From Candidatus Multivoradales bacterium (GTDB lineage Bacteria > Acidobacteriota > Thermoanaerobaculia > Multivoradales > JAHEKO01): a DNA stretch of 64,000 bases. Under the pieces are notes generated by a model. It saw only the letters and a list, made by a program, of their open reading frames with translations. It did no database searches and was not told the origin of the DNA. A program made the translations under genes and the position numbers. Positions 12,857 through 30,400 of this stretch are shown here, piece after piece. The first letter of the stretch is position 1. Every line of letters starts with the position of its first letter. The stretch lies in NCBI GenBank assembly GCA_965248055.1, contig CBDFIJ010000004.1, positions 3,264,001 through 3,328,000 of the forward strand. The letters are read 5' to 3'.

Positions 12857-14377
12857 GTGCCCTCTCGCTCGCGGACTGGTGGTCGCAGTGGAGGTTCCCA
12901 ATCCGGGGACGGAAGATCCGGAAAAGCGAAGCCTGGAGTGCGGCGACCACACCATTCGCAACCCAACAAGCCGCAGGTTCCTAGTGGGGCAGTCGCCGAG
13001 ACCGTGATGGCGCACCACGCGCATCCGATTACCAGCCGCGACATTCAATCGAACGCCCTGCGCATCCTCCATCGGCTACGCAGTCATGGCTACAAGGCTT
13101 ACGTGGTTGGCGGTGCAGTCCGCGATCTGTTGATTGGCGGCAAGCCCAAAGATTTTGACGTTGGCACCGACGCCACTCCCGGCCAAATTCGTCGCCTATT
13201 TCGCAACTCGCGCATCATCGGGCGACGCTTCAAACTGGTTCACGTCTACTTCAGCGACGGGATTATCGAGGTCTCCACGTTTCGTGGAGTCCCCAATCCC
13301 AAGCATCAAGATGATGACGGCCCGATTACCAATGACAACAGCTACGGTACTCCGGCTGAAGACGCTGTACGCCGCGATTTCACCGTCAATGCCCTGTTTT
13401 ACGACTACGCCAGCGGTGAGGTCATCGATCACGTTAACGGGTTGGCAGACATCGAACGGCAATTGATCCGTTCCATCGGTCCGGCGGTAGAGCGATTTCG
13501 CGAGGACCCGGTGCGCATGCTGCGTGCCTGTGAATTTGCCGCTCGGCTTGGCTTCAGCCTCGACGAAGAAGTTCAGGACGCCATTCAGAGCGAGCGACTG
13601 TGGTTGGAACACGCCGCCCCCGCCCGTCTGACCGAAGAGCTGCTGCAACTGCTGGGTTGTGGCTCCTTCAGCGTTGCATTGCAGTGGATGACCGACCTTG
13701 ACCTAGCTTCGATCTACCTGCCAGGTCTGCGCTTCAGCGCGGCCACGCCTCAGAGCCGGAAAGCGGGGGAGTTCTATCAAGAGCTGGATCGCCGGGTGCA
13801 GGAAAAGGATCGTCCCTCGGACGCAGCATTGCTGGGCGCCCTGCTTCTGCCGGTGGTCGAGGCCGACCTGCGGGCGTGGGAACGAAAGCATCCAAATCAG
13901 CACGGCGGGCAGCAAGCCAATGAGAAAGCCAGTAGGAGAGCCAGTAAGACGGCCAGTGAGAAACGGCCTCCTCAGAAAGACGGTGATAATCGACCGCAGG
14001 GCGCCCCCAGCGAACCCACCGTCGCCCCGCCAGCTGTCGTTCGCCAGACCGTCATCCACCGCCTCAACCTGTTATCGGCCGGCTTCGAGTTCTCCAACGC
14101 GCGCACCCACGACACCGTCTCCGCCTTGGTCGGATTTGGCCGCATGCGTCGTCCCGATCTACCATTCGCCCAGCGCCTCCAACTGGGCCGCAAACCGTAC
14201 TTTCCCGACGCCCTAGAACTGTGGGAACTCTACGCCGCAGTCTCTGGCATCGATCGGAAAGAAATTGACCAATGGCACCGTGCCGCCGGAGAATCCCGTA
14301 GTCGTCGGCCTCCCAAGCGGCCCCAACGCGATGGCATGCCGCGTCGCCGTCGTGGTCGTCCCGCACAGCGTCGTTAG
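12857..14377 (+). CDS. pcnB: poly(A) polymerase
   Basis: VGGAVRDLL, DFDVGT, IIGRRFKLVHV, RRDFTVNAL and EDPVRMLRA; Arg-rich tail. Confidence 0.9.
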   Translation: MPSRSRTGGRSGGSQSGDGRSGKAKPGVRRPHHSQPNKPQVPSGAVAETVMAHHAHPITSRDIQSNALRILHRLRSHGYKAYVVGGAVRDLLIGGKPKDFDVGTDATPGQIRRLFRNSRIIGRRFKLVHVYFSDGIIEVSTFRGVPNPKHQDDDGPITNDNSYGTPAEDAVRRDFTVNALFYDYASGEVIDHVNGLADIERQLIRSIGPAVERFREDPVRMLRACEFAARLGFSLDEEVQDAIQSERLWLEHAAPARLTEELLQLLGCGSFSVALQWMTDLDLASIYLPGLRFSAATPQSRKAGEFYQELDRRVQEKDRPSDAALLGALLLPVVEADLRAWERKHPNQHGGQQANEKASRRASKTASEKRPPQKDGDNRPQGAPSEPTVAPPAVVRQTVIHRLNLLSAGFEFSNARTHDTVSALVGFGRMRRPDLPFAQRLQLGRKPYFPDALELWELYAAVSGIDRKEIDQWHRAAGESRSRRPPKRPQRDGMPRRRRGRPAQRR

Positions 14378-14531
14378 CCGCATCATCCCCGAAGAGTTTC
14401 AAAGCACGGATGTCATCCCCGTAGGGGGAGCACGGGCGGGGACCTTTCCCAGTCACCACCAGATCCCGGCCCCGCACCCTCCCCCCGCCGGGACGACGAG
14501 CGGATCCCGGCCCCCCTCCCAGCCTCGCGCC

Positions 14532-14643
14532 GGGATGACGTGGACTGTTGTATCCGCCTGGGATGACGTGGACTGGCGTATCCGCCTGGGATGACGTGGA
14601 CTGGCGTATCCGCCTGGGATGACGTGGACTGTTGTATCCGCTT
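14532..14643 (+). repeat. 4 x 28-bp tandem repeat GGGATGACGTGGACTG(TT/GC)GTATCCGCCT
   Basis: Four head-to-tail copies read directly, with no spacers. Confidence 0.92.
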
Positions 14644-14762
14644 ACCGTTTAGCCGTCTCCCTGGGAGGGTTAACCCCTTCGTCATCCCCGTAGGGCAGGA
14701 CAACCGCCATCCGTCCGCTTCGAGGGCATTGTCCAGAAAATCAGCGCCCGCCTTCCATCTTT

Positions 14763-14846
14763 GTCATCCCGAGTGTAGTCGAGGGATCTCGATGTTCGGC
14801 TAATTGAGATCCTTGGACTCGGGCTGTGCCCTCGCTCAGGATGACA
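14763..14846. repeat. inverted pair of GTCATCC...GGATCTC repeats
   Basis: gtcatcccgagtgtagtcgagggatctc followed by an inverted copy gagatcc...caggatgac. Confidence 0.7.
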
Positions 14847-14867
14847 ATCCGTGCGGCGAAATCCTCC

Positions 14868-14892
14868 GTAGGAGAGGGGTTTAGCCCCTCCC
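14868..14892 (+). repeat. GTAG-type REP element
   Basis: GTAG followed by the palindrome gagggg-ttta(g)-cccctc. Confidence 0.7.
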
Positions 14893-15001
14893 TTCTTCTA
14901 GTCCAGCCCCACACCAAGACACCCAACCTACCCAGTAGACTTCGGGGTGGCGTCGGAATCAGTTTATTCAAGGTTGTGCGAGATTGGCATAGAGTTAGTT
15001 C

Positions 15002-15463
15002 ATGTCTTTACCCTGGAGTCTTGAAGGGGAGATCGAGATTGAGAAGGTAGGTAGTCCAGCCCTTGTGGCGCAGCGTCTCGTCGAAGCCCTGCGGAGCGAG
15101 AAAGCGGCTCATGTTGAGCTGGACGGACAGAACATCAACTTCATGGCGGGCGCATTCAGATTTGTTTCAAGTTGGAACATTCTTGTCCCGTTCAGGACTG
15201 GCTCAATTACGGTTGCAGGAAATGAAGCTCGTATCGTTCTTCGCTACAAGGGCTCGTTTCGCGAGATGCTAATAGTGTGTTCTTTGATGGCTTCGGTTGT
15301 CCTGTTTTTCTCTGTGATCTCCGCCGTGCAACATGAAGGATCGGTTCTTGAAGCGCTGTTCCTTGGCGTTGTTGCGTGGCTGTGGTTGTACGGTGGAAAC
15401 GCGGCCATCGCCGCATTTTGTTGGCCCAGGTGGCTTGCTAGGACTGCCCGCGGAGAGCACTAA
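15002..15463 (+). CDS. hypothetical membrane protein
   Basis: 153-aa ORF with two C-terminal TM helices; lies between two REPs. Confidence 0.6.
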   Translation: MSLPWSLEGEIEIEKVGSPALVAQRLVEALRSEKAAHVELDGQNINFMAGAFRFVSSWNILVPFRTGSITVAGNEARIVLRYKGSFREMLIVCSLMASVVLFFSVISAVQHEGSVLEALFLGVVAWLWLYGGNAAIAAFCWPRWLARTARGEH

Positions 15464-15521
15464 GGTGACGTTCCACAGAGCAAGGTGATGCTTCTTCGCT
15501 TCGTAGATTCTCTGTTCGGGG

Positions 15522-16526
15522 TCAATGGTTAATAACGACATTTGGGAAGAGCTTTGTAGCGTCAAAGTCAGTGGCGTGTGTCCAGATTCCATGAATGGCG
15601 TGGAGTAGTTTTCTCATGATGGCGACAATCGCTTGCATGGGTTTTAGTCCTCGTTGTTGGAGACTGAGATAGAAACTTCGACAGTGAGGATTGGCCCTCG
15701 CAGCCGAGAGAGCGGGCATGTAGAGAGCCTGTCTAAGGCGTGAGTTTCCGGTCTTGGAGATTCTTCGTGGTTTGTTGACAGAGGAGCCGGATTCGACCGG
15801 TTTCGGATCGAGTCCGGCATGAGCGACCCATTGCCTAGGGGTGAGCTCTTTGGGCAGCACTGCGAGTTCGGCAAGAATCCGAGATGCGCTCTTGGGTCCG
15901 ATTCCCGGGATACTCAGCAGGAATTGATAACGTATCTTGAGTTTGGTCTGGTTGTTGATGAGTTTGAGTGCCTGTTTGTCGAGCCGATCGATTTCCCGAT
16001 TCAGTACAACGATTTGGCGATTAAGACTTTGGCTTACAGCTGCCGGAATCGTTCTAGAGGCAGATGCAGCATGGAGTCGGTTCTTCTCCTCTGTTCGTTG
16101 TTGAGTCAATGCCAGGATGCGGCGGGTGATGGACCTTAGGGCCAGTTCTTGGTCACCAGGTGGCTGGAACTCTTCAAACGGCATGCGTTGAGCAAACTGA
16201 CAAAGCATTTCCGCGTCGATGCGGTCGGTCTTGGCTCTTTTCATCAAAGCTTCAGCGAAACGGCGAGCAGCACGAGGGTTGGCAACCATGACCTCAACAC
16301 CTGTGGTTTTGCACAGAGTGAAGGTCAGATCTTGACCGTACACTCCGGTGGCTTCCAGGACCGCTTGAACGGGCCGTTCTTGTCTCTTGAGCCAAGCGGC
16401 CAGCTGGCGAATACCGGACGCAGTATTTGCAAACTGTCGCCTCTCAAGCTTGCCTGAGGCAAGCTTGAGACATAGCTCAAAGGACTTGGCGCTGACTTCG
16501 ATTCCGCAGGGCAGTGGCTTCTTCAT
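15522..16526 (-). CDS. IS110 family transposase/bridge recombinase
   Basis: GIEVS, LEATG, KTDRIDA, SIPGIG, ESGSS and RKLL motifs. Confidence 0.93.
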   Translation of the reverse strand: MKKPLPCGIEVSAKSFELCLKLASGKLERRQFANTASGIRQLAAWLKRQERPVQAVLEATGVYGQDLTFTLCKTTGVEVMVANPRAARRFAEALMKRAKTDRIDAEMLCQFAQRMPFEEFQPPGDQELALRSITRRILALTQQRTEEKNRLHAASASRTIPAAVSQSLNRQIVVLNREIDRLDKQALKLINNQTKLKIRYQFLLSIPGIGPKSASRILAELAVLPKELTPRQWVAHAGLDPKPVESGSSVNKPRRISKTGNSRLRQALYMPALSAARANPHCRSFYLSLQQRGLKPMQAIVAIMRKLLHAIHGIWTHATDFDATKLFPNVVINH

Positions 16527-16579
16527 CGTTTTCTCCTTTCGGTTACACTGTCCCTTCGGCTCCCTGACCTTGGGTAACT

Positions 16580-16712
16580 CTCGCACCGACCTTGTGAATG
16601 CAGGCTCTAGGGCCTCAGATTCTCTCCGGCGTTCGAGAGGTAAGGCAGGGAGCTGATCTACGTACAGGCTCAGGGCCTAAGGGGCGGGACAGCTTCCCTG
16701 CCGAAGAGACTC
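16580..16712 (-). ncRNA. putative bridge RNA (target-binding loop plus donor-binding loop); ends approximate
   Basis: GGCAGGGA/TCCCTGCC stem; guide segments match the element's own end 9/9 and the flanking REP 8/9 plus 5/5. Confidence 0.8.
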
Positions 16713-16865
16713 ATCTCCACAAACATACAAGGGGAGGGGTTTACCCCCTCCCGTCTTGGGATTCAGGCACACGCCAAAATGCTCCACCTACCCTGGTGAA
16801 ACATCACCTCCAACTGCGATAAGCTGAACCGGCCCGAAAGGGGCCCCGAGACGGGCGAAAGACCT

Positions 16866-17543
16866 ATGCGATCACCACTCAGTTTCTTCCAATCAGCAGT
16901 CGGCAAGAAGACCGTCATGGCGGTTACCGGCATCATGTTGTTCGGCTTTGTGCTCGGCCATATGGTGGGCAATCTCAAGCTCTACTTGGGCGCGGAAAGC
17001 CTCAACCACTACGCGGAATTCCTGCGTGAATTTGGCTATCCGCTGTTGCCGCACATGGCCTTTCTGTGGATTGCCCGTATTGGATTGTTGGCCGCGGTAG
17101 GACTGCACATTTGGTCCGCCTGGGCGGTGACCCGAATGAGCCGCGCCGCACGACCTCACAAATACCTGAAGCGCGAATCGGTGGCCGCGACCTATGCCTC
17201 GCGCACTATGCGCTGGGGTGGGGTGATCCTGATTCTTTTCATCATCTACCACCTGCTGCACTTGACGGTGGGCAACGTCCACCCGGATTTCGTCCACGGC
17301 GAGGTCTACCGCAATCTGATTACCAGCTTGAGCGTTCCTTGGGTGGCGGGCTTCTACATCTTGGCCAATATCTTCCTCGGCATGCACCTATACCACGGCC
17401 TGTGGAGCATGTTTCAGACTCTCGGCTGGTCCGTCGACAAGAACAATGACTGGCGCCGTAAATTTGCCGGTGCTTTCGCCCTACTGGTCACTCTTGGCAA
17501 CCTTTCATTTCCCATCGCGATTCTCACCGGACTGGTTTCATAA
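16866..17543 (+). CDS. sdhC: succinate dehydrogenase cytochrome b558 subunit
   Basis: [23 protein letters not shown] and [14 protein letters not shown]. Confidence 0.92.
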
Positions 17544-19471
17544 TGGCTTTCAACGGCACACTCGACCCGCAGGTACCCGACTATCCGATAGAGGAGATGT
17601 GGCGCCGCACTCGCTTTGACCTCAAGCTGGTCAACCCCGCCAACAAACGCAAGTTCAACATCATCGTCGTCGGCTCTGGCTTGGCCGGCGCTGCCGCCTC
17701 GGCGACCTTGGCGGAACTCGGCTATAACGTGCAGTGCTTCTGCTACCAAGACTCGCCACGCCGGGCTCATTCGATCGCCGCCCAAGGCGGCATCAATGCC
17801 TCCAAGAACTATCAAAACGATGGCGACTCGGTATGGCGGCTGTTCTACGACACCGTCAAAGGCGGTGACTTCCGCTCCCGCGAGGCCAACGTCTATCGCT
17901 TGGCTGAAGTCTCCGGCAACATCATTGACCAAGCGGTGGCCCAAGGCGTCCCCTTCGCTCGTGAATATGGCGGCGCGCTTGATAACCGCTCCTTCGGCGG
18001 CGCCCAGGTGTCGCGCACCTTCTACGCCCGCGGCCAAACCGGGCAACAACTGTTGCTCGGCGCCTATCAAGCTCTGGCACGGCAGATCGGCTTGGGCAAA
18101 GTCGAGATGCACACCCGCACCGAGATGCTCGACGTTATTACTCATGAAGGCCAAGCCTGCGGCATCGTCACCCGCGACATGGTGGGCGGCGAGATCCGTT
18201 CTTGGACCGCCGACGCGGTGGTGCTGGCCACCGGTGGCTACGCCAACGTTTTCTATCTCTCGACCAACGCCAAGGGCTGCAACGTCACCGCGGCTTGGCG
18301 CGCGCACCGTCGCGGCGCCCTGTTTGCCAACCCTTGTTATACCCAGATTCATCCCACCTGCATTCCCCAGGCGGGCGACTACCAGTCCAAGCTCACCTTG
18401 ATGAGTGAATCTTTAAGAAACGACGGTCGCATTTGGGTACCCAAGAACAAGGACGAAGACCGCAAACCAGTCGATATTCCGGAAGACCAGCGCGACTACT
18501 TCCTCGAACGCCGCTATCCGGCCTTCGGCAACCTGGTGCCCCGCGACGTCGCCTCCCGCGCCGCCAAGACCATCTGCGATGAAGGTCACGGTGTCGGCGC
18601 CAGTGGCCGCGGCGTCTACTTGGACTTTGCCGATGCCACCAACCGGCTCGGGCGCGACGCCATCGAAGATCGTTACGGCAACCTGTTTGACATGTACCAC
18701 GACATCACCGGTGAGGACCCGTACAGCTCGCCGATGCGCATCTACCCGGCACCGCACTACACCATGGGCGGCCTGTGGGTGGACTACAACCTGATGACCA
18801 CCGTGCCCGGCCTCTACGCCATCGGCGAATGCAACTTCTCAGATCACGGTGCCAATCGTCTGGGGGCTTCAGCACTGATGCAGGGGCTGGCCGACGGCTA
18901 CTTCGTACTGCCCAACACCATCGGCAACTATCTCTCTGAGCGCATGGGCGAAGAAGTGATCTCAACCGACCACGACGCCTGCAAGGCGGTCGAGGCCGAC
19001 GTCCGTGAACGCACCGAGCGCTTGCTCTCGGTCAACGGCAGCCGCTCGGTGGATTCCTTCCACCGCGAGCTGGGCAAGATCTGCTGGGACTTGATCGGCA
19101 TGTCCCGTGACAGTGAAGGCCTCAGAGAAGCCTTGGAAAAGATCCCCACTCTGCGCGAGGAGTACTGGCAAAACGTCAAAGTGCTGGGCAACAACCAGTC
19201 GTTCAACCAGGCCCTAGAAAATGCTGGACGCGTCGCCGACTTCTTTGAACTTGCCGAACTCATGGCACGCGACGCCTTAGACCGCGACGAATCCTGTGGC
19301 GCCCACCTGCGGTTGGAACACCAGACCCCCGGAGGCGAGGCTGAGCGCAACGACCAGGACTACTCCTACTCAGCCGCCTGGGAATACACCGGCCCCGGCA
19401 ACGAACCCAACCTGCACAAAGAACAGCTCGAATTCGAGAACGTACATCTGGCTAGCAGGAGCTACAAGTGA
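17543..19471 (+). CDS. sdhA: succinate dehydrogenase/fumarate reductase flavoprotein
   Basis: [21 protein letters not shown] and [11 protein letters not shown]. Confidence 0.96.
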
Positions 19472-19493
19472 CTGTCGCTTGGGTCAAGCGACA

Positions 19494-19788
19494 GTCATCC
19501 CGAGCGGAGGCCCGAAGGGCCGTAGTCGAGGGATCTAGACTTTGCCCATCCACCGATAACCCCGTTGTCACCCAGAGCGGAGCCGCGAAGCGGCGCAGTC
19601 GAAGGATCTCGGTATTGCTCAACCTCATCATTTTGAGCGAGTCACCCCCTCCGTTATTCTCGCATAGGCGTGCCAGTAGAGCCTGCCCCGGCGGGGGGGG
19701 GGGTGTGAGTAGAGCCGGGGTTATCCTGAGCTCGCGCCCCTTTTGTCATCCCGAGCGTAGGTCCGTAGGACCGCAGTCGAGGGATCTC
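19494..19788 (+). repeat. three GTCAYCC-GAGCG-[hairpin]-AGTCGARGGATCT repeats in the sdhA-sdhB spacer
   Basis: Copies at 19494-19536, 19567-19610 and 19745-19788. Confidence 0.8.
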
Positions 19789-19829
19789 AAAAGACCGATG
19801 CACCCCAGACCAGCCTTCATGAGAACCCC

Positions 19830-20558
19830 ATGCGCCTAACCCTCGAAATCTGGAGACAACAAAACGCTGACGCCCAGGGCGGCATCGTCCAGTACCAACT
19901 CAACGACGTCTCATCCGACATGTCGTTTCTGGAAATGCTGGACGTCCTAAACGAGCAACTCACCGAACGCGGCGAAGACCCGGTCGCCTTTGACCACGAC
20001 TGCCGCGAAGGCATCTGCGGCATGTGCGGCGTGATGATCAACGGCCAGGCCCACGGCCCGCTGCCCGAAATGACCACCTGCCAACTACATATGCGCCATT
20101 TCTCCGACGGCGACACCATCCGCATCGAGCCCTGGCGCTCCGCCGCCTTCCCGGTCGTGCGCGATCTAGTGGTCGATCGCGGTCCCTTTGATCGGATCAT
20201 CGAATCCGGCGGCTACATCTCCATCGGCACCGGTGCTGCCCCCGACGCCAACTTGATCCCGGTCCCCAAAGACATCGCCGACCAAGCCATGGACGCCGCC
20301 GAATGCATCGGCTGCGGCGCCTGCGTCGCCCAGTGCCCCAATGGCGCCGCCCAGCTCTTCACTGCTGCCAAGGTCTCCCATCTCGGCCTGCTACCCCAAG
20401 GCCAGCCCGAACGCTCTCGCCGAGTGCAGAGCATGGTCGAAACTATGGAGGAGTACTTCGGCTCGTGCTCGAATTACGGGGAGTGCGAGGCAGTGTGTCC
20501 GAAGGGGATTTCGCTGGAGTTTATTGCCAGGATGAATCGGGATTGGGTGCGGGGGTAG
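19830..20558 (+). CDS. sdhB: succinate dehydrogenase/fumarate reductase iron-sulfur subunit
   Basis: [21 protein letters not shown] and [12 protein letters not shown]. Confidence 0.96.
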
Positions 20559-20755
20559 GTCGGAACCTGACTCGGAAGCGTGGAATGTCGGGCTACTTCC
20601 GAGCACCGCAAATCAGTCAGAAATACTTCCCCTCCGCTTGATAGCAGTATTCAACTGCGCCATACCTCGACGCGCTGCCTGTCGCGATCAGGCACCCACC
20701 TGTTTCGATGCGATACGATTGAAGCATCCGGGGACGGTGTTAAGAGGCTTTTCCA

Positions 20756-21070
20756 ATGTCACATGCCAAGACCAAGCAGGATGTCCTGCAACGACTTCGC
20801 GCGAATACACCGCGCATTCGTGCGTTGGGCGTGCTGCGCATCGGGCTTTTTGGTTCCTTCACGCGCGATCAACAGAATGAAGGAAGCGACGTCGACCTGA
20901 TCGTGGAATTCGAGCCGGAGCGCAAGAGTTTCGACTCGTTTATTCAACTTTCGTTTTTCCTGGAAGAGCTTCTTGGTAGACGGGTCGACCTCGTGACCAC
21001 TCAAGCGCTTAGCCCCTACATTGGTCCCCATATTCTTGCCGAGGCGGTCTATGCTGACCTCGCCGCTTGA
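20756..21070 (+). CDS. MNT minimal nucleotidyltransferase antitoxin (MntA-like)
   Basis: LFGSFTRD...SDVDLIVEF (GSx10DxD) and LGRRVDLVT. Confidence 0.9.
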
Positions 21071-21422
21071 CTACCTACGCCATATCCGTGATGAGGCGAG
21101 TTATCTGCTGGATCGCTCCGGTAGCATGGGTAAGGAAGAGTTCTTGCGCGACGAGACGGTGAAACGCGCTTTCGTTCGGAGCATCGAAGTCATTGGCGAG
21201 GCCGCCAAGAAAGTTCCGGCAGAACTGAGAGAGCGGCACACCCAGATCGACTGGCGCGCCATGTCCGGCATGCGGGACCGTCTAATTCACGGCTATTTCG
21301 GTGTCGACTACGAGATCGTCTGGGACGTAGTGGCGAACAAGGTGCCGGAGCTTCATGAGTACATCAACACCATCCTGGAGGAAGGCTCGGACCTGCCGTC
21401 GGGGGAGGAGCGAGCGCCCTGA
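21051..21422 (+). CDS. HEPN/DUF86 ribonuclease toxin (HepT-like)
   Basis: EVIGEAAK and [14 protein letters not shown] (Rx4HxY); overlaps the MNT gene. Confidence 0.9.
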
Positions 21423-21425
21423 GAT

Positions 21426-21550
21426 TGGTCGAGACCATAGAGGAGTACTTCGGCTCCTGCACAAACTACGGCGAGTGCGACGCGGTGTGTCCGAAGGGGA
21501 TTGCTTTGGAGTTTATTGCCAGGATGAATCGGGATTGGGTGCGGGGGTAG
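21426..21550 (+). repeat. second copy of the sdhB 3' end (125 bp)
   Basis: Ungapped match to 20434-20558 with about 13 mismatches (hand count). Confidence 0.95.
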
Positions 21551-21558
21551 GGGGTTAG

Positions 21559-21798
21559 GTGTCTCCCACCGTTCGGCGCATCGGACCGTACCGTTTCTTT
21601 TTCTACAGCAACGAAGGCACCGAGCCTTCACATATCCATGTTCAGCGCGATCATCGCGTGGCTAAGTTTCGGCTAGATCCGGTGCGATTGGCGCGTACCG
21701 GGCACTTTCCAGATCACGAAATTCGTGAGGCCGAGGCGTTAGTGCGAGATAATGAAGCCGAACTATTGGAGGCATGGCATGAGTTCTTCGGTCGTTGA
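21559..21798 (+). CDS. DUF4160 family protein (putative TA component)
   Basis: PTVRRIGPYRFFFYSNE..EPSHIHV...AKF...LLEAWHEFFG. Confidence 0.85.
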   Translation: MSPTVRRIGPYRFFFYSNEGTEPSHIHVQRDHRVAKFRLDPVRLARTGHFPDHEIREAEALVRDNEAELLEAWHEFFGR

Positions 21799-22033
21799 GA
21801 AAATTGCCCTGGCGAGCAGGGTAGAAGTTACCGCAACCGATTTGCGGGTGAACTTGGTCGATGGGCGGCAGATTGTGGTGCCCCTCTCGTGGTTCCCACG
21901 ATTGGAGCAGGCGACGCCGGAAGCCAGGAAGAACTGGGAGTTGCTTGGCGGTGGCGAGGGAATTCACTGGCCGGATGCTGATGAGGATTTGAGTGTGGCA
22001 GGGTTGTTGGGTGGGTCGGTGGTTGCTGGATGA
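21779..22033 (+). CDS. DUF2442 family protein (putative TA component)
   Basis: LVDGRQIVVPLSWFPRL...GIHWPDADEDLSV. Confidence 0.88.
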   Translation: MSSSVVEKIALASRVEVTATDLRVNLVDGRQIVVPLSWFPRLEQATPEARKNWELLGGGEGIHWPDADEDLSVAGLLGGSVVAG

Positions 22034-22043
22034 GCCTAGCGAT

Positions 22044-22206
22044 CCAAGGCCAACCTGAACGCACTCGCCGGGTGCAAAACATGGTCGACACCATGGAGGA
22101 GTACTTCGGCTCCTGCTCGAACTACGGTGAGTGTGAGGCGGTGTGTCCGAAGGGGATTTCGCTGGAGTCTATTGCCCGGATGAATCGGGATTGGGTGCGG
22201 GGGTAG
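22044..22206 (+). repeat. third copy of the sdhB 3' end (163 bp)
   Basis: Ungapped match to 20396-20558 with about 15 mismatches (hand count). Confidence 0.95.
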
Positions 22207-22212
22207 GGGTAG

Positions 22213-22899
22213 ATGGCGGTCGCGTTCGACCGTGAGTTGGCGAGGCCAGTGTATGAAGATCTTGCCCACCTGCAAGAGAATTGGAACCAGCAGGCTACTG
22301 ACGCAGTTCTGCGTCGCGAGAGTACAGTTCTGCGGCGCTTGCTTGTTGACGGGCATTTGTCTCGCGTCGCGAGTAGCATCGGCATCAAGTATCGCCTCCA
22401 AGTAGGCTGTCTTTGTGAGTTCTATACAACGGAGCGGTTAAAGGGCTATGAATATTGGATGGCCCCTTATGTAAAGTACAAGGGCGCGGCAGTTCAAATG
22501 GCGTCTATACGGAACCGGGCGGTAACTGAAAATGAGCTCAAAATCGAGCATGAGGCTCGAAAGGCGTTGGCTGATAAGTCGAAGGCGATCAGCGTACCGA
22601 AGTACCTGCAGTTGCCAGCCATGGTTGTTGAGGGAATCATAGTTAGGCATCAAGGTGTAATTCAGTTTGTATGCAACAAGCTGGGCGGGGCACACTACGA
22701 TCGGAGTCGTAAGAGGCAACGAGATCAACAATTTGTTCTTCTGGACAAGGTTCGGTCCGGCGATTTTCAGGTGCTGGGAAAGGATGCAGTGTACTTACAG
22801 TTGTTAGGTGTCGGCCAGGCAATCGCTACGAATCAAATCACTTATCGGGTGATGTCCCGGCTGAGGAGTATGGGAATCGAACAACCTAGCAAGGATTGA
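22213..22899 (+). CDS. hypothetical protein (lower GC; NKLGGAHYD motif)
   Basis: 228-aa ORF starting 6 nt after the third sdhB-end copy. Confidence 0.75.
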   Translation: MAVAFDRELARPVYEDLAHLQENWNQQATDAVLRRESTVLRRLLVDGHLSRVASSIGIKYRLQVGCLCEFYTTERLKGYEYWMAPYVKYKGAAVQMASIRNRAVTENELKIEHEARKALADKSKAISVPKYLQLPAMVVEGIIVRHQGVIQFVCNKLGGAHYDRSRKRQRDQQFVLLDKVRSGDFQVLGKDAVYLQLLGVGQAIATNQITYRVMSRLRSMGIEQPSKD

Positions 22900-23019
22900 C
22901 TATATCGAGTAGATGTCAGCCGAAATTAGGTGCCACCCGAATAAATGAGATTTGAACGGTTGTACAAAGCATCGTGAAACTCGGACCTCTGGGAATAGGT
23001 GCCACTTATTAGGCGGCGT

Positions 23020-23395
23020 TATGTCAAGGGGTACATCTTTTCTTTCCGGGTGGGGGGCGTCCCGGTATTGAGTGATCAAAGAAAGGCAGCGCTAGTTTTT
23101 TGGGTCTCATTAAGTAGGAGTCGATGACGCTCCAGCCACTCATCAGGATCTAGGTAGTCGAGTTATCAGTCCTCGGTACCCCAGGCAGTATCGTGCCCCA
23201 GAAACCCGTTGGTCTCGATTCCGTTTCCATGAGAAGGGATTCAGTCGCATGGTTTTCGAGCTAGTAGCTCGATCCAGCCCCTGGTTGGTTGACGGAGTCG
23301 TGCGCCACCGGTGCAAGTAAGAGAGATCGAGGCCGCTTCCACTCAGATGATTGGTTATTAACACAGCATCTTTCTGGTTGGCGGCCTCGATCTCA
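23020..23395 (-). ncRNA. putative seek/bridge RNA region with multiple loops
   Basis: About 380 nt of non-coding sequence 3' of the transposase; perfect 14-bp stem at 23323-23336/23381-23394 and further stems. Confidence 0.55.
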
Positions 23396-24412
23396 TTAGC
23401 CAAACAGCCTTTCGGGCTGGTAAGGCGCTTGATCCCTCATCATGAAGTAAGCAGCGCGTGCGAGCTTGTGGGCAAGAGCCCTGGTGGCGAGAAGGGAGCC
23501 GGATCGAGATCGTTTCTTGTCATGCCATTTGCGTGCTTTGGGCTGCCAACGGACGGCAAAGTGTGCGGCTTCGTGAAATGCCCAGGACAGGTAGGGGTTG
23601 CCGTTCTTGCGCAGTCCATGTCCTTTGATCCGTTGATTGGAGTTTCTCTCGGCTTTGACCAGTCGGCAGTAGGAGACGTAGTTACCCACTTTGGGGAAGC
23701 GATTGATATCTCCGGTCTCATATTGGATGGTCGCAGCAAGAGTCGCTCCGATGCCAGGGATGGAGGTGAGCAAGCGGTAGCTGTCTTCCAGAACTGCCTG
23801 CTCGCTAATGGTCTTTTCGATTATCTCGATTTGTTCATCGAAGGCCTCGATCATCGCCAGCGAAGCGATCATCGAGAGTTGGTCATTTGGATCGTCGATC
23901 CAGTTGCTGATGTCTTTGACGGTGACCTTGTTCAAGGCGTTGGCAGACAGTCGCTTGGCTGTGGTGCGTTCAAGGACATTGCGCAGGCTGAGTTTATTGG
24001 CCGAGCGCTGGCGAACCAGCTGAGTGCGTCGACGCAGAAGATCCCGTACCGCTCGTTTTTCCGGTGGGTAGATCCACCCCGTGGGCAAGATCCCGAGTCT
24101 CAGCATGTGGGCCAGCCACCGGGCGTCGGTTTTGTCGTCGGTATGCTTGAGACCTTGATACTGCTGGGCTGCCAGAGTGTTGACCAAATGCACCTTGTAG
24201 CCCGAGTCCTTAAGACCATCGACCAGCCAATACCAGTTGAAGGTCGATTCAACCGCAATGCCCTCCATCTTTCCAGCATAAGGTTCCAGGCCCGAGCGGA
24301 TGGATTCAAGGTCGTTGCGGTAACGCTTTGCCTTAACCATTTGGTCAGACTCGTCAATAACCGCCAAATAGCTGTTGTTTGCGTGAAGGTCGATCCCGGC
24401 GTACAGTCCCAT
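23396..24412 (-). CDS. IS110 family transposase
   Basis: GIDLH, VESTFNWYWL, TDDKTDA, SIPGIG, GNPYL and HKLARA. Confidence 0.93.
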   Translation of the reverse strand: MGLYAGIDLHANNSYLAVIDESDQMVKAKRYRNDLESIRSGLEPYAGKMEGIAVESTFNWYWLVDGLKDSGYKVHLVNTLAAQQYQGLKHTDDKTDARWLAHMLRLGILPTGWIYPPEKRAVRDLLRRRTQLVRQRSANKLSLRNVLERTTAKRLSANALNKVTVKDISNWIDDPNDQLSMIASLAMIEAFDEQIEIIEKTISEQAVLEDSYRLLTSIPGIGATLAATIQYETGDINRFPKVGNYVSYCRLVKAERNSNQRIKGHGLRKNGNPYLSWAFHEAAHFAVRWQPKARKWHDKKRSRSGSLLATRALAHKLARAAYFMMRDQAPYQPERLFG

Positions 24413-24430
24413 TGGGTGCTCCTTTGTGGT

Positions 24431-25794
24431 GGATGTGTCCCGAATCTTGTGGAAATTGGTATTTGGCGTAGCGTCTCCCGCGGTCAGGTTTAGTTGATTC
24501 TAGTCCTACGCGGCTGCTTGACGGTCAAGCATCCGGTACAAGTCTTGGTAGCCGTTGATGCGGTGCATCCTGATCTGACCGAAAGCGACGAGTCCCCAGA
24601 GCAAGGTAACACCCGCTGCCTCAGTCGAGAATGAGCCTTGGGTCTTGGTACGGCGCCGAAACTCACGGTTGAGATTCTCCAGCGCGTTGGTGGTCCTTGT
24701 GGATCGCCACAATGATCTCGGTAAATCGTCGAAAGTGATCAGTTCCATCCCAGCCTCTTGGAAGCTCCTGGCTACTGCGGGCACCAGCTTGGACCACTTG
24801 GTAACAAAGATTGAATAACTCTCTCGGGCCTCCAGGGCATCTTGGGCTCGCAGCACTTGATCCCAGTCTCGCTTGAGCTCACCATGAGCATGCTTAGGGC
24901 AATGCTTCTTCAGGTTTTCCCACTTGTGCTGGATACAACGCTGGACTTTGGCCTCTGGCCAAGCCCTGACTCCTACCGCCAAACCCTTGTGGCCGTCTGA
25001 GACCAGGAGATGCGGTGCTTTCAAGCCCCTGCGTTTAAGATCTTCAATCAACCACTTCCAGTGACTGCCTGCCTCACTGGCTGCTAACCGTAGAGCTACC
25101 AGGACTTTGGTGCCATCTTCTCTTACCCCCAGAGCAGCCAACACCGGAGCTGACACCACGCGCCGAGCAAGCCGCACTTTCAAGTGAAAGCCATCAAGAA
25201 ACAAGATCGGGTAGCTTTCCTCAGACAGGCCTCGCTCACTCCAACGGGCAAAGTGCTCCTTCAAACGCGATACCACCCGAGACACAGCGCTCTTGGATAG
25301 ATGCTCCCTGCCCAGCAGTGGAGTCAAGGCCTTCTTGATCCGACGGCTGTTGGCCCCTGCTAGGTAGCAGCCGAGAATCGCTTCATCCACCTCTCGGGTG
25401 CGCCGCTGGTAGCGCTCAACAAGATGGCTTTGAAACTCCTCAGTGGATCCATCTTGGCCTACTACCCGACCACGAGGAATTCGCAGTTGCCGGGATCCGT
25501 ATCGGGTCGTGATCGTCCGCTCTTGTTTGCCGTTGCGATAGCCCGAGCGCTCACCTGAACGCTCGTACGCAACACAACCCAATGCGTCAGCAAGCTCTCC
25601 TTCTAGAACTATTTCGATTGCTTCCCGGATACGGTGCTGAAGCTTTGACTGGATATCTTGCTGGAAACGAGATGATTCCGGTCTCTGATTGGTACTCTTG
25701 TCCATGGCGTAGCCTCCTTTCGCCTACTCGGCGATGGGTTTTGACTACCGGAGGTTACGCCTTTCTCAATTTCCACAACAATCGGGACGGATCC
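24431..25794 (-). mobile_element. IS256-family element with 28-bp imperfect IRs and 8-bp TSD TTTGTGGT
   Basis: IRs ggatgtgtcccgaatcttgtggaaattg / caatttccacaacaatcgggacggatcc; TSD at 24423-24430 and 25795-25802. Confidence 0.92.
24506..25705 (-). CDS. IS256 family transposase
   Basis: GYRNG, LFLDG, VSDGHKG, QRCIQH and RTTNALENLNREFRRR. Confidence 0.93.
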   Translation of the reverse strand: MDKSTNQRPESSRFQQDIQSKLQHRIREAIEIVLEGELADALGCVAYERSGERSGYRNGKQERTITTRYGSRQLRIPRGRVVGQDGSTEEFQSHLVERYQRRTREVDEAILGCYLAGANSRRIKKALTPLLGREHLSKSAVSRVVSRLKEHFARWSERGLSEESYPILFLDGFHLKVRLARRVVSAPVLAALGVREDGTKVLVALRLAASEAGSHWKWLIEDLKRRGLKAPHLLVSDGHKGLAVGVRAWPEAKVQRCIQHKWENLKKHCPKHAHGELKRDWDQVLRAQDALEARESYSIFVTKWSKLVPAVARSFQEAGMELITFDDLPRSLWRSTRTTNALENLNREFRRRTKTQGSFSTEAAGVTLLWGLVAFGQIRMHRINGYQDLYRMLDRQAAA

Positions 25795-25934
25795 TTTGTG
25801 GTTGGCAGTGGATACTTCGGTAAGCCAAAGCTTGTCACTGCGGAGGAGCACCTATCTGAGGACTCCCCTTTCTGCCAACATGAGTGAGACACTTCCCCGT
25901 TCAACAATTAATGTAGGGCGGACGGAGGTAAATC

Positions 25935-26420
25935 ATGTTGAAGATAGATACAAATCGAAGTCTGGTTGGTTCGAGGGAGAGATCCTCGGCCTTACCGGAG
26001 GGGATCGAGGAGCGTAGCGACGAGAGCCCGGTAGGTGAGGCCGTCGCGCTCGACCCGGAGACCCTGGAGAAGCCCTATCGACGGCGTTTTAGCGCCGCGT
26101 ACAAGCTTGGCATTCTGGAGCAGGTTGATGCCTGCACCGCAGCGGGTGAAGTAGGAAGGTTGCTGCGTCGCGAAGGGCTTTACTCCTCACATTTGGCAAG
26201 CTGGCGCAAAGCGCGGCGCGAAGGCTCCCTGGCTGGACTTTCCAAGCGTCGCGGGCGCAAGGCAAAGCCGGTCAATCCCCTGGCCAAGAAAGTCCAGCAG
26301 CTTGAGCGAGAGAATGCGCGCCTTAGCGGTGAGCTTGAGAAAGCTCACTTGATTCTATATGTCCAGGGAAAAGTTGCCGGGCTGCTGGGATTGAGCTTCG
26401 ACGACGGGAAAAGTTCCTGA
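25935..26420 (+). CDS. IS3 family transposase OrfA
   Basis: RRRFSAAYKL..LLRREGLYSSHL..W HTH followed by a coiled coil. Confidence 0.88.
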   Translation: MLKIDTNRSLVGSRERSSALPEGIEERSDESPVGEAVALDPETLEKPYRRRFSAAYKLGILEQVDACTAAGEVGRLLRREGLYSSHLASWRKARREGSLAGLSKRRGRKAKPVNPLAKKVQQLERENARLSGELEKAHLILYVQGKVAGLLGLSFDDGKSS

Positions 26421-27424
26421 TGGCCGCAGTAGAGCTATCGAGCACGGTCGGTGTGAAGCCGGCGTGGCAAGCTCTCGGGGTTGCACGGGCCACTTACTAC
26501 CGTCGCCAGAAGCCATCCAATGGGCGAAAGCAGCCCCGACCAACTCCCGCCCGAGCGCTATCGAGCTATGAACGCGACCGAGTACGCGGACTTCTATGCT
26601 CGCCACGATTCGTCGATCGAGCCCCCGCTGAGGTGGTTGCCACCTTGCTCGATGAAGGCACTTATCATTGCTCTGAACGCACGATGTATCGCATTCTGGC
26701 TGCCGACAAAGCAACCAAGGAGCGACGCAACCAATTGCGCCGTCCACGCTATGCCAAGCCGGAGCTGGTGGCGACAGAGCCCAATCAAGTTTGGTCCTGG
26801 GATATCACTAAACTCAAAGGCCCAAAGACTTGGACTTGGTATTACCTCTACGTCTTACTCGATATCTTCAGCCGCTATGTGGTGGGCTGGATGGTGGCAT
26901 CAAGAGAAAGCAGTGCCCTGGCCAAGCGATTGATTCAAGATAGTTGTATCAAGCAGGGCACTGCCCCAGGAGAGCTCATCCTGCATAGTGACCGAGGGTC
27001 ACCAATGACCGCCAAAGGCACTGCCCAGCTCCTGGCTCAGCTCGGCGTCACTCGATCACTTTCCCGACCCAAGGTCCCGGACGACAATCCCTTTTCAGAA
27101 GCCCAGTTTAAGACCCTGAAATACCATCCGGGATTCCCCAGTCGTTTCGGCTCCATCGAAGACGCGCTCAGCTTTTGCCGACCTTTCTTTACTTGGTACA
27201 ACACCGAGCATCGCCACAGCGGGCTCTCGATGATGACCCCGGAAGATGTCCACTACGGACGCACTGTGCAGGTCCTCGACCACAGAACCAGTGTTCTGGC
27301 TGATGTTTTTCTCAATAAACCCGAGCGCTTCGTACGCGGCTGCCCGAAGCCAAAACCATTACCCGACGCTGTCTGGATCAACCCACCAGATCGGGATCGA
27401 TCATCGCTTGGCGATGCTCACTAA
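26420..27424 (+). CDS. IS3 family transposase OrfB (DDE)
   Basis: WSWDIT, DIFSR, HSDRG and DNPFSEAQFKTLK. Confidence 0.92.
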   Translation: MAAVELSSTVGVKPAWQALGVARATYYRRQKPSNGRKQPRPTPARALSSYERDRVRGLLCSPRFVDRAPAEVVATLLDEGTYHCSERTMYRILAADKATKERRNQLRRPRYAKPELVATEPNQVWSWDITKLKGPKTWTWYYLYVLLDIFSRYVVGWMVASRESSALAKRLIQDSCIKQGTAPGELILHSDRGSPMTAKGTAQLLAQLGVTRSLSRPKVPDDNPFSEAQFKTLKYHPGFPSRFGSIEDALSFCRPFFTWYNTEHRHSGLSMMTPEDVHYGRTVQVLDHRTSVLADVFLNKPERFVRGCPKPKPLPDAVWINPPDRDRSSLGDAH

Positions 27425-27464
27425 TTAAAGATGACGTGTGTCTCATTATCGTTGGCAGGTTCCG

Positions 27465-27767
27465 CTATCGCCTTCTGCCGCTCGTTTTTCCGCTGGTACA
27501 ACACCCAGCACCGTCACGCCGGCATCGCCATGCTGACACCCGAAGATGTCCACTACGGCAAGGCCGACCACAAGCTCAAGATCCGTCAACTGGCCCTTGA
27601 CCAAGCTTGGCGAAACAACCCACAGCGATTTGTCCGTGGAAGACCGACCGTTCAGCTATTACCGAGGGCCGTCTGGATCAACCCACCCAAACATCAGCGC
27701 ACCAAGGAGGTTGTCCCGATTCACTAATTAATTCTGCCAACTGTCTCAAAGTTGTTGACAGGTTCCG
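27465..27767 (+). pseudogene. 3' remnant and right IR of a second, related IS3 element
   Basis: FCRSFFRWYNTQHRHAGIAMLTPEDVHYG...AVWINPP; ends tgtctcaaagttgttgacaggttccg. Confidence 0.85.
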
Positions 27768-28839
27768 CTTTTGGACGCTGACTTGGGCCCGTCTGATCTT
27801 TGGATCGTCGTCACGAAGCCATCGGTGAGGGTGAACTCGGGTTCGGGCAGGCCCGCGGCAACGCATTTCCGGATCATGTCGCGAGTGCCGGTGCCCATGC
27901 GCTCGATGTATTTGGTGAGGTAGAGCGGTTCGGCGAGCAGCGGGTTACCGGGAATGGAACTGTGAGGCTGGCGCAGCTTGTCTAGGGTGAGCGCTGCGGG
28001 GAGAGTGCCGGGATTCCAGACCTCCAGCCGGTCTGTGAAGAGCATGACCTGGACGCTGCCATTGCTGTTGTAGTCGCGGTGGGCGACGGCGTTGACAATG
28101 GCTTCGGCGACCACATCACGCGGAATTTCGTATTCGACGGGCGCCTGCGGTCCTTGCACCCGGGTGCCGACGCTGAGGTTGATCTTGGACATCACGAAGT
28201 CGATAGCCTGATCCACCAGCTCGAAGGCAGTGCCCTTGTAGACCTGGTGGGAGGGAATGGGCTTGGCGGAAGGGGAAAGTTGCGCGCCTTGCGGGCGCGG
28301 GGCACGAAGCGGGCGATGTGCTCTGGATCGAGGTCGTCGAGGGAGGCCTTGCGAGCCGCGCGGGCGTCCCAAGGGGCACGGTTGAGACTACCGGTTTCCT
28401 CAAGGTAGTCGACGAGACTGGCATAGACGTCGGGCAGCAGGTCCGTGGATTGCTGGAAGCGTCGGCGCACGAGTTGGTTGCCAACTTCACGAACCAGCGT
28501 CTGCATTTCCGGGTGCTTGTTTTCGTCACTAGCGCCTTTGACGAAGATCAGTCGGGTCTTGCCGAGGTCGGTGGCATGGTTGAACTCTCGGTGGGTAGGC
28601 GAGAGCCCGTCCGGGTTCTCCCATCCATACTCATCGCCGAACAGGCCGAGGTAAACATCGCACTTTGCGACTTGATCGAGGTAGACCTCGTCTGGCTGAC
28701 GGTCTGAAGCCGGAACATCGCGCTCAAACAAGAATGCCTCGAAGAAACGTCGTAGCAACGGATCGTTGGAGAGATACTCTGCCAGTGCTTTCCGCTCTTC
28801 GGCGAACTCCTTCTGCACACTGCTGATGAAGATCTTCAT
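27768..28839 (-). pseudogene. DUF4062 plus RecG-like/HATPase-type C-terminal protein; internally deleted, frameshifted and IS-truncated
   Basis: MKIFISSVQKEF N-terminus; EAIVNAVAHRDY...NPG...IERMGTG in another frame; break near 28265. Confidence 0.75.
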
Positions 28840-30400
28840 GCGGTGATACCGATCTTTTCCAGAATCTTCCGCAGGTCCTTGTCGGTCTTCTGGGCCTCGC
28901 CCTCAATCGCATTCAGTTCCGCGACGATCTCCACAATCGGCCGATAGGTCTCGGCGTCGGCTGTGTGGATGTAGCGGCTGGGGGATATGTTGTAGTCGGT
29001 TTTTTTCAGCTTTGCATGATCGACGATGCGGCTGAGTTTTTCTTCTTCCTTCCAGTTGGCGAGGACATCGGCGATGCGGTCGATCCCCTCGGGCGGGAGG
29101 AAGTTCTTGGGGTCTCCCTTTTTGAAGACCTGACTGGCGTTGACGAGCAGGACCTTACCTGCCCGAGTCTTGGGCTTGTCCCGGTTGAGAAAGAGGACGA
29201 TGCCCGGGGCGGGAGTGTTGTAGAACAGGTTCTCGGGCAGGTAGAGGACGCTCTCGATGAGGTCGTGGTCGACGAACCACTGGCGGACGGTTTTTCCTTG
29301 TCGGTATTCGCATTACCCGAACCGCGGGAGGCGGCGCCGGTGTCGAGCACCACGGCGGCGCGGCCCTCGGGCTTGAGGCTGGCGTGTATGTGTTGCACCC
29401 ATCCCCAGTCGGCCGAGGATTTACCAGGGAAGCCGGCCCCGGCGGGGAAGCGGTCTAGTTCGTCAGCGTCGTAGTCTTTCTCAGAGTACTCCTTCTGGTT
29501 CCACATCGGGTTGGCGACTACGCGGTCGAAGGTGCGCAGTTTGCCGCGCCTGCGGAACTTGGGATTCTTGAAGGTGTCGCCGATCTCGATCTGACCCTCC
29601 ATGTCGTGGATGATCATGTTCATGTTGGCCATGGCCCAGGTTTCGGGGATGTATTCTTGCCCGTAGAGTTTGAGCGGGGCGAAAGTACGCTTCTTCTGGC
29701 CCTTGGTCTTCGATTCCATGGCGATCTCGCACTTGATAAGCAGACCGCCGGAACCGCAGCATGGGTCGTAGATATCCATGCCGGGCTCGGGAGCCAGCAC
29801 CTTAGCCATGATCTCGCCGACTTCGGGTGGGGTATAGAACTCGCCGGCGCTCCTGCCGCTGCCTTCAGCAAATTTGCGGATCAAGTATTCGTAGCTCTTG
29901 CCGATGATGTCGGCTTCCACGTCGTCGAGTCCCAGGCGCTTGGTGCTGATGGCCTCGATGAGGTTGGAGAGGCGGTCGTCGTCGAGATCACGCTGGCCGT
30001 GGGTAGTGGCGTTGAAGTCAACGCGGTCGATGATGCCCTGCAGCAGCGGGTTTTGCTTGGCAATCGCCCGCATGTGGCTGGTGACGCCTTCGCCGATCTT
30101 GTCTGAGAGCTTACGGATGACCGACCAAACGGGCTGCTCAGGGTCCTTCGGTACCAGTGGCAGATAAAAGCGGACCAGCTTGTGGTCGGCTTTGGCGAGT
30201 AGGAAGGCCTTGTCGCGCGAACCGACCTCGGCGGCGATGCGGTTTATCTCGTCGTCAAAAACGTCGCACAGGCGCTTGGTGAAGACAAGCGGCAGGATGT
30301 AGTCCTTGTACTTGGGCGCGTCCTTAGCCCCGCGGATAGAGCAGGCGGCATCCCAGATCCAGGATTCGAGGGATTTGACCTTGTCGCTGCTCTTGCCCAT
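28836..30400 (-). pseudogene. hsdM: type I restriction-modification M subunit with a 1-nt frameshift near 29293
   Basis: GEFYTP, YDPCCGSGG, ANPMW; continues ESVLYLPENLFYNT...YNISPSRY in another frame. Confidence 0.85.

Follow-up and report, generated by a model that had tools for sequence, protein, structure and literature searches.

How does the 3′ end of a core respiratory gene come to stand three times in a row, each time followed by different cargo? The question is raised by sdhB, which encodes the iron–sulfur subunit of succinate dehydrogenase/fumarate reductase, in 64,000 nucleotides (nt) of DNA from Candidatus Multivoradales bacterium (the window). The window is G000:C4:3264001-3328000 within a 3.4-Mb, 98% complete genome; G000 is this source genome, G001 a genome of the same genus, and C4: and C1: introduce contig coordinates. 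sdhB closes the sdhCAB operon, which ends at 20558 of the window. Behind it lie an MNT–HEPN gene pair, a displaced copy of the sdhB tail (copy 2; the in-gene tail is copy 1), a DUF4160–DUF2442 gene pair, a further displaced tail (copy 3) and a gene for a protein of 228 amino acids (aa) (Table 1). The array probably arose by two successive additive integrations, in which DNA of related species recombined with sdhB through the usual homologous route.

Whole-genome BLASTN aligned both displaced tails to the in-gene tail without gaps, copy 3 over 164 nt at 90.9% identity (E = 4e-60) and copy 2 over 126 nt at 89.7% (E = 3e-42); copies 2 and 3 share 90.5%, also ungapped. These values agree with the original prediction, made from the sequence of the window, of three direct sdhB 3′ ends that are ~90% identical and share their last 29 nt. 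The final 29 nt to the TAG stop are indeed identical in all three tails, as is one following G. The 5′ starts are unequal, copy 2 beginning 125 nt and copy 3 163 nt before the stop, and a common boundary motif is absent. Copy 2 has an open frame from a TTG at 21425, while copy 3 falls within an open frame of 58 codons, the ATG of which (22030) overlaps the stop of DUF2442. Every Cys codon is retained in both.

The differences between the tails are biased towards synonymous sites. Copy 3 differs from the in-gene tail by 11 synonymous and 4 non-synonymous changes (proportion of changed synonymous sites (pS) 0.32, of non-synonymous sites (pN) 0.032, pN/pS 0.10, p = 3e-5) and copy 2 by 9 and 4 (pS 0.35, pN 0.042, pN/pS 0.12, p = 3e-4). 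For comparison, the in-gene tails of G000 and G001 differ with a pS of 0.40. Decay in place would give pN close to pS, so the copies seem to have diverged mostly as working sdhB ends elsewhere. On this substitution pattern, the spare tails appear to be functional tails of foreign alleles, and not decayed in-place duplicates. An origin in ancient tandem duplication of the gene end in place, with unrelated insertions separating the copies afterwards, is thus very improbable. Short local duplications do exist, as at the rph tail (185 nt apart), and two spare sdhB tails in relatives (G241 and L061, below) look neutrally decayed; the low pN/pS, the open frames and the retained Cys codons nevertheless largely refute this origin for copies 2 and 3, and G001 has one tail.

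G001 carries a single sdhB, whose product is 95% identical in amino acids to that of G000, followed by a repetitive extragenic palindrome (REP) and different small genes. The repeat site is single-copy in this relative, which is another species with different downstream DNA and so falls short of an empty allele in the strict sense. Between the two genomes, sdhB shares 88.5% identity, whereas 98 sampled orthologues (the yield of 400 G000 genes tried against about half of G001) have a median of 73% and none of them reaches the sdhB value. Conservation so far above that of typical genes would place sdhB among the few genes with which distant donors could pair, making it a good landing pad, and insertion at the end of the last gene spares the operon. 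Likeness to G001 did not identify the original copy for any of the copies tested (7/7).

We considered whether the array could be an assembly artefact, with alleles of different strains strung together, and find this most improbable. The contigs available came from four runs of one sample, possibly the assembly's own source, and are not independent. Mismatch-free contigs join HEPN to copy 2 (20530-21536, 4/4 runs) and DUF2442 to copy 3 (21524-22207, listed in 3/4 runs). The three units are found at the depth of their flanks and not at one third of it (X2, 69.9/69.7/71.5 versus 60–69; X4, 29.8/30.1/28.5 versus 27–31), and the spare copies are 5′-truncated and abut cargo stops, unlike alleles. 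The artefact draws what support it has from short-read contigs that end within the identical core, and thus do not prove unit order, and from the use of one sample.

We propose the following course of events. A DNA fragment of a related species, made up of the 3′ portion of its sdhB and the cargo behind it, would enter the cell. The fragment would be trimmed and closed to a circle, either by end joining or by excision between tails already duplicated in the donor, and RecA would bring about a single crossover between the circle and the resident sdhB tail. The outcome would be an intact hybrid sdhB with new cargo right after its stop, and a tail copy with a variable 5′ start that is shifted downstream together with the older cargo. 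The 228-aa gene or its region would have arrived first, DUF4160–DUF2442 second and MNT–HEPN last. Such toxin–antitoxin (TA) cargo may persist because its loss through recombination between the repeats would be toxic. G000 has recA, comEC and ku, the presence of which indicates capacity only, as does that of mutS. In copy 3, 13 mismatches fall within the first 97 nt and 2 within the final 66 (Fisher p = 0.03), the pattern expected from a crossover close to the 3′ end. A comparable process is described in E. coli (PMC3240628), where linear DNA with a lacZ end is trimmed, recircularised and integrated by a recA-dependent single crossover, with duplications of 109–950 bp in 56/60 clones. Single-crossover entry that regenerates an intact gene, as originally proposed, fits the synonymous-biased divergence, the variable 5′ starts and the empty site of G001, and is probably correct.

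Under the single-crossover model one expects 5′ starts that vary, copies that end close to the stop, divergence of the kind found between alleles and a large set of unrelated targets; each of these is observed. We scanned the tails of 2433 G000 genes, setting aside 229 with paralogues. Of these genes, 23 had a tail copy downstream on their own strand, 1 had one upstream and 2 had one on the opposite strand; head copies were found upstream for 14 genes and downstream for 6, many of them being REPs, insertion sequences (IS) or paralogues. A scan of G001 C1 on its own (1166 genes) gave 5 downstream versus 2 upstream tail matches. From the genome scans, 16 host genes with 18 spare copies were chosen by hand. 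By sequence comparison, the same scar appears behind at least 15 unrelated genes other than sdhB, and the search for this architecture at other genes, which the original prediction had called for, was thus positive. Hosts include genes for an aldo-keto reductase, a Rieske oxygenase, an amidohydrolase, a TonB receptor, HsdM and an aldehyde dehydrogenase, as well as AIM24, TerC, RNase PH, MazG and a TPR protein (two spare tails). The 18 copies start 65–500 nt before the stop and end near it; pN/pS is below 0.3 in 14/18 and p below 0.05 in 12/18. Five of the 16 hosts have an orthologue in the fetched 1.63 Mb of G001 (about half its genome), and all five are single-tailed there. The cargo is mixed, comprising Fic, metallo-beta-lactamase-fold and UvrD proteins and also ApbE, a sulfatase and unknowns, so scar cargo is not all defence.

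The many unrelated hosts and variable 5′ starts argue for sequence-independent homologous recombination rather than a dedicated integron-like system. The idea that sdhB acts as the dedicated attachment site of such a system is not supported, given the other scarred genes, repeats that are not hairpins, the absence of excision or reshuffling among the joints listed and the rarity of spare sdhB tails in relatives.

The scans also returned individual loci of interest. The TPR locus (G000:C4:86166-94411; L258) is a second stacked array, in which two spare tails run into a REP and the cargo neighbours are Fic, metallo-beta-lactamase-fold and AAA-ATPase genes. Mirror cases, with copies of a gene's 5′ part upstream, are found at G000:C4:1173019-1175654 and 1686898-1687725 (204 nt at 90% and 129 nt at 91%). 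A gene for 432 aa lies between a porin-like gene and its spare tail (G000:C4:2633420-2634718); in G001 it occurs in a different place (G001:C1:1562247-1563564), 86% identical and without flanking repeats.

To see how widespread spare sdhB tails are, we surveyed 300 genomes of the order. The tail was matched in 231 besides G000, with two matches in 5. A tandem spare tail was present in 1/231 (G241, 98 nt at 92%, around a lectin-domain gene) and in 0/44 of the other family genomes. In G290, a stray sdhB tail lies remote from the gene, directly 5′ of an unrelated, unannotated two-gene module (L165:4371-4517). Three double matches were rejected as spare tails: that of G020 is really a 5′-cut gene at a contig end, that of G119 consists of two contig-edge halves, and that of G084 is on two contigs, one of which was checked and is full-length. 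The loci of 20 relatives checked at the DNA level showed no direct tail copy; the protein-level search for relatives is blind to short or decayed tails. Among 80 metagenome loci, 54 have at least 1 kb downstream, and one of these has a tandem spare tail (L061, 134 nt at 83%, around a PepSY/FMN-binding/porin trio). An exact 20-nt tail pattern had 0 matches in metagenome contigs, and four viral-collection loci have one sdhB match apiece.

Several observations weigh against integration by homologous recombination. The E. coli event is rare, at ~4e-9 per recipient (PMC3240628), and the mutS of G000 should hinder crossovers at ~10% divergence. The mismatch gradient of copy 3 recurs, more weakly, between G000 and G001 (11/97 versus 4/66, p = 0.29) and may reflect conservation. 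Both left junctions lie 3–10 nt from a cargo stop, tighter than random trimming predicts; later deletion trimming is our guess at an explanation. In 4/18 G000 copies pN/pS is 0.59–1.19, and the spare tails of G241 and L061, whose differences mostly change amino acids, look decayed and carry no foreign-allele signal. Finally, no circle, empty allele or intermediate was seen, and the joints listed, from contigs that drop rare forms, include none that skips a unit or circularises at the tails.

A fourth, decayed sdhB piece lies 95 kb off (C4:3188800-3189030), where a 5′ part is fused to the tail through an internal deletion. Its stop is 3 nt from the end of a four-gene block whose last member is a QatC/QueC-like gene (G000:C4:3186100-3189060; L001:6100-9060), and G001 lacks the entire insert at the corresponding place. 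This piece shows that a long sdhB stretch can travel with downstream cargo, without a fixed boundary, and can also land off target.

We then asked whether a site-specific enzyme could account for the units. Pfam detected no integrase in 18 open reading frames (ORFs) scanned around the locus and we found no attC-like hairpin in 19401-24500, as had been noted from the sequence at the outset. On a circular contig, ~81 kb would separate the locus from the closest gene for a tyrosine or serine recombinase; otherwise the distance is >690 kb. A recombinase acting in trans had been suggested; candidates exist, in the form of 7 tyrosine recombinase matches and 3 large serine recombinases, and none is at the locus. 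One of the former is an integron integrase (C4:1492852, above the NCBIfam cut-off), >1.5 Mb from the array. In its surroundings (G000:C4:1489500-1493769), attC-like cassettes lie upstream of the integrase and are interrupted by IS pieces.

It is improbable that the units are remnants of site-specific elements, accreted like cis-mobilizable elements (CIMEs). An integrase would once have targeted the sdhB 3′ end, or a recombinase would have acted in trans, and the units, having shed the integrase, would retain att sites whose core is the identical 30 nt. The identity of the final 29–30 nt and the recombinases of the genome would suit this history, as would the accretion of decayed elements at gene 3′ ends described in PMC5704250. 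The homology, however, extends 125–163 nt before the stop with unequal starts, the tails fold no better than shuffles (z −1.8 to +0.6), and 16 unrelated targets would demand many enzymes. The variable region holds no integrase relic and, by BLASTN, no spare tail at its far end. No integrase was noticed behind sdhB of G001, G241 or L061, the other relatives having been screened for spare tails only.

The sdhB tail itself is unusual in composition. Third-position C falls from 0.64 to 0.20 and G rises from 0.18 to 0.58, both the largest shifts of 2105 genes, and the G001 tail likewise ranks first among 1025 G001 genes for third-position shift. As G001 has this G-rich tail and no spare tails, the trait is older than the array, which rules out that the cassettes brought it. 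By a G4Hunter-type score, the stops of copies 2 and 3 outrank every one of the 2433 gene ends, with the in-gene end among the top 7, while the G001 sdhB end would fall in the top 24; a strict G-quadruplex pattern left the in-gene copy unmatched. The runs read GGG-att-GGG-tgc-GGGGG-ta-GGGG in G000 and GGG-ATT-GGG-TGAGA-GGG-TA-GGG in G001. G-rich ends are mostly lacking at the other scarred genes.

In Neisseria, the pilE G-quadruplex starts RecA recombination. By a reading that we regard as a long shot, the sdhB end of the genus would be an evolved capture site, whose G-runs start RecA recombination and serve as ribosome-binding site for promoterless cargo 6–8 nt past the stop. It is similarly doubtful that these runs, able in principle to form a G-quadruplex, act in this way while the open frames of the spare tails couple translation of the array. 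If true, an integrase-free, cross-species cassette system would be written into the codons of a core gene. The G-rich tail also lends itself to an inexpensive test of whether core genes have in some cases evolved into landing pads.

The plain reading of the G-rich tail is a mutational footprint of REP activity. A REP lies 12 nt past the G001 sdhB stop. Among G001 genes, the C drop is 0.129 in the 47 that have REP-like motifs behind them and 0.052 in 978 others (p = 2e-4), in a test biased towards the association as the motifs were picked after viewing the top list. In many genes of G001:C1 the body is C-rich and the last 30 codons are rich in G/T, and REP-like or AGTGAC-type repeats often come next; the pattern forms a strand-biased footprint at gene ends. 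In the window, three REP-like hairpins and a 14-G run occupy the sdhA–sdhB interval (19494-19787 and 19691-19704).

These REPs suggest a break-driven insertion, which we consider unlikely, though with some chance of being right. A REP-associated HUH nuclease or another nick behind sdhB would trigger repair that copies the tail from a foreign or sister template and brings in cargo, and the G-rich, C-poor tail would be the footprint of repeated nicking. The REP behind G001 sdhB, the three between sdhA and sdhB, the larger C drop of REP-followed genes, the TPR and mazG repeats of G000 that extend into REPs and a Y1 transposase (REP-associated tyrosine transposase (RAYT)-like) gene within one cassette are in keeping with it. 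By contrast, no REP follows any of the three G000 tails or sits at the left junctions, many scarred genes have neither a REP nor a skewed tail, and in-place target duplication would not yield synonymous-biased divergence. Breaks may explain only where events start, and not how they are resolved.

Table 1. Features of the sdhB array and its immediate neighbourhood (window positions).
Feature	Position	Strand	Support
sdhB, succinate dehydrogenase/fumarate reductase Fe-S subunit, 242 aa, intact	19830..20558	+	Pfam Fer2_3, Fer4_8
In-gene tail (copy 1), with last Cys cluster	20396..20559	+	BLASTN
Unit 1 spacer, 197 nt	20560..20755	+	
MNT antitoxin-like nucleotidyltransferase, GS..DxD motif	20756..21070	+	Pfam PF01909 (NTP_transf_2) E 7e-13; PADLOC PDC-S09
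HEPN (HepT-like) toxin, R-x4-H-x-Y motif (RDRLIHGY)	21051..21422	+	Pfam PF01934 E 3e-28
Displaced tail, copy 2	21426..21551	+	BLASTN
DUF4160 gene	21559..21798	+	Pfam PF13711 E 8e-18
DUF2442 gene, likely start 21779, longest ORF from 21752	21779..22033	+	Pfam PF10387 E 7e-22
Displaced tail, copy 3	22044..22207	+	BLASTN
228-aa protein gene, GC 0.52	22213..22899	+	no Pfam family
Short polar motif AGGTGCCACCCGAATA	22928..22943	+	
IS pile-up: IS110 23396-24412, IS256 24506-25705, IS3 25935-27424	22995..27424	.	

The units measure 992 and 656 nt and contain solely TA-type genes, with no integrase or transposase. Copy 2 begins 3 nt past the HEPN stop and copy 3 10 nt past the DUF2442 stop, and the cargo that follows starts 8 nt (DUF4160) and 6 nt (228-aa gene) past the respective tail stop. 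A simple scan of the spacer of unit 1 revealed neither a sigma-70-like promoter nor a terminator; the promoter scan, with 2 sites versus 1.6 expected, was uninformative. Pfam upheld the assignment of both gene pairs. The translated motifs GS..DxD and R-x4-H-x-Y, which we take to define MNT and HEPN proteins, are found in adjacent genes, as in HepT/MntA pairs. The HepT-like toxin is single-copy in G000, and neither it nor DUF2442 has a match in G001. DUF4160/DUF2442 is termed a TA pair in PMC12065111.

The IS110, IS256 and IS3 elements are neighbours outside the tail-bounded units, and 3′ of them lies a broken type I restriction-modification module. An hsdM with a shifted C-terminal frame, preceded by a split DUF4062/RecG-C gene, is found at window 29006-30400 and at G000:C4:541663-543057, with equal length and the last 55 residues identical in the two places. 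A 28-nt tandem repeat lies behind pcnB (window 14532-14669). Rfam gave no match in window 14000-30000 at E ≤ 1.

The 228-aa protein had been described as an orphan, which it is not: we found 20 relatives at E ≤ 0.001 with 25–39% identity, and the family spans 32 loci in many phyla, rare and patchy. It has an invariant motif NKLGGxHxD, with N155..H161 invariant alongside R34 and R41. In searches with the predicted model, which is confident (pLDDT 89), the top four VIA-align rows were HEPN-type chains, all weak (Z 4.3–5.3, root mean square deviation 3.3–4.4, 93–112 aligned). Foldseek gave nothing at E ≤ 0.001, and the ESM Atlas matches were unnamed viral clusters with a recognition score under the reliable range. 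One relative, P0002, matches CARF_HEPN (E = 2e-4). The protein is possibly a divergent HEPN nuclease. Flanking repeats were present at 4/32 loci of the family, none recognised as a gene tail. In three other organisms, relatives lie amid non-coding repeats of 95–185 nt (L151:3821-4914, L132:2809-6727, L134); attC-like matches in L132 and L134 were judged unconvincing.

Behind the 228-aa gene, the motif AGGTGCCACCCGAATA marks an older variable region behind sdhB and recurs four times behind G001 sdhB (one variant, one shorter; L032:10082, 11680, 12316 and 13663). The polar motif AGGTGCYACCCG occurs 7 times in G000 and 12 times in G001, versus 1–2 for a control; it may represent one end of a mobile repeat so far unrecognised. 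Its G000 sites are window 22928-22943 and ~22997-23004 and C4:411067, 1384372, 1385745, 1388830 and 1394958. They cluster in variable regions; four Rhs-like orphan fragments have the motif at their fixed start, and one site lies immediately 5′ of a stray DUF2442 3′ fragment. In the Rhs-like locus (G000:C4:1380400-1408000), orphan fragments are interspersed with several genes that resemble Y1 transposases (RAYT-like). IS110 has a long non-coding end (window 22995-23400) that starts inside the second polar motif copy and recurs as a 98.5% copy in the integron region (G000:C4:1490854-1491253) and as shorter copies elsewhere.

We compared the sdhB array with known systems. Our literature search, with subscription papers mostly outside it, found no report of sdhB as an integration site or of stacked spare tails at core genes. 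Like integrons and clusters of attC sites lacking integron integrases (CALINs), the array has compact, same-strand, largely promoterless cargo with TA genes, the newest unit presumably nearest the anchor. Unlike them, it has no attC hairpins and no attI, and the integron integrase has its own cassettes far away. Hot spots of horizontal gene transfer without mobile elements are likewise variable regions by a core gene, fed by homologous recombination in the flanks; their model (Oliveira et al. 2017, PMC5635113) invokes a double crossover, by which content is exchanged and no duplicate remains, unlike at sdhB. CIMEs and integrative mobilizable elements also stack integrase-less units behind a housekeeping gene, at its 3′ end, with a copy of that end bordering every unit, but, as reviewed in PMC5704250, need a site-specific integrase and short fixed att cores, whereas neither an integrase nor a fixed boundary was found at sdhB. 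The E. coli lacZ-end integrations share variable gene-end duplications around foreign DNA and the lack of a site-specific enzyme; that account (PMC3240628) concerns a laboratory plasmid with identical homology, whereas at sdhB natural donors would be ~10% diverged and one site was reused.

In rhs C-terminal displacement, a two-step model has been proposed, in which a circle with a variable fragment of the conserved gene and downstream genes recombines by a crossover that displaces the old end and builds an array; this swaps the toxic tip, with the immunity gene as cargo (Jackson et al. 2009, PMC2935791). An array of variable-length displaced fragments 3′ of an intact gene is likewise present at sdhB. 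Here, however, the C terminus is conserved in all copies, the host gene belongs to core respiration and the downstream cargo is unrelated.

Insertion with long target duplication was reportedly first described by Nobusato et al. in 2000. As set out by Furuta, Abe and Kobayashi in 2010 (PMC2853133), integrase-less inserts lie between repeats of 24–423 bp that often span a start or stop codon. Small cargo, variable direct repeats (some imperfect, 83/96), an intact target and an empty site in a relative are common to these cases and to sdhB, where the repeats are 126 and 164 nt (63–502 at the other hosts) and the insert is <20 kb. The cases described there are single insertions of restriction-modification genes, read as target duplication with possible DNA breaks; the sdhB array differs in its TA-type cargo, its stacked units and copies with distinct functional allele histories. 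For the question, raised by the restriction-modification reports, of how integrase-less inserts come by their long flanking repeats, the synonymous signature of separate functional alleles provides a clean discriminator: repeats that bear it would have arrived with donor DNA and not been copied from the target at insertion. If this is general, the ends of highly conserved genes serve TA and defence genes as landing pads across species, and spare tails are a simple marker by which to find defence cargo not seen before, for instance the 228-aa family. The sdhB locus exemplifies, in stacked form and at a core gene, a kind of insertion that is known but poorly explained, and the evidence that its repeats are foreign alleles is new.

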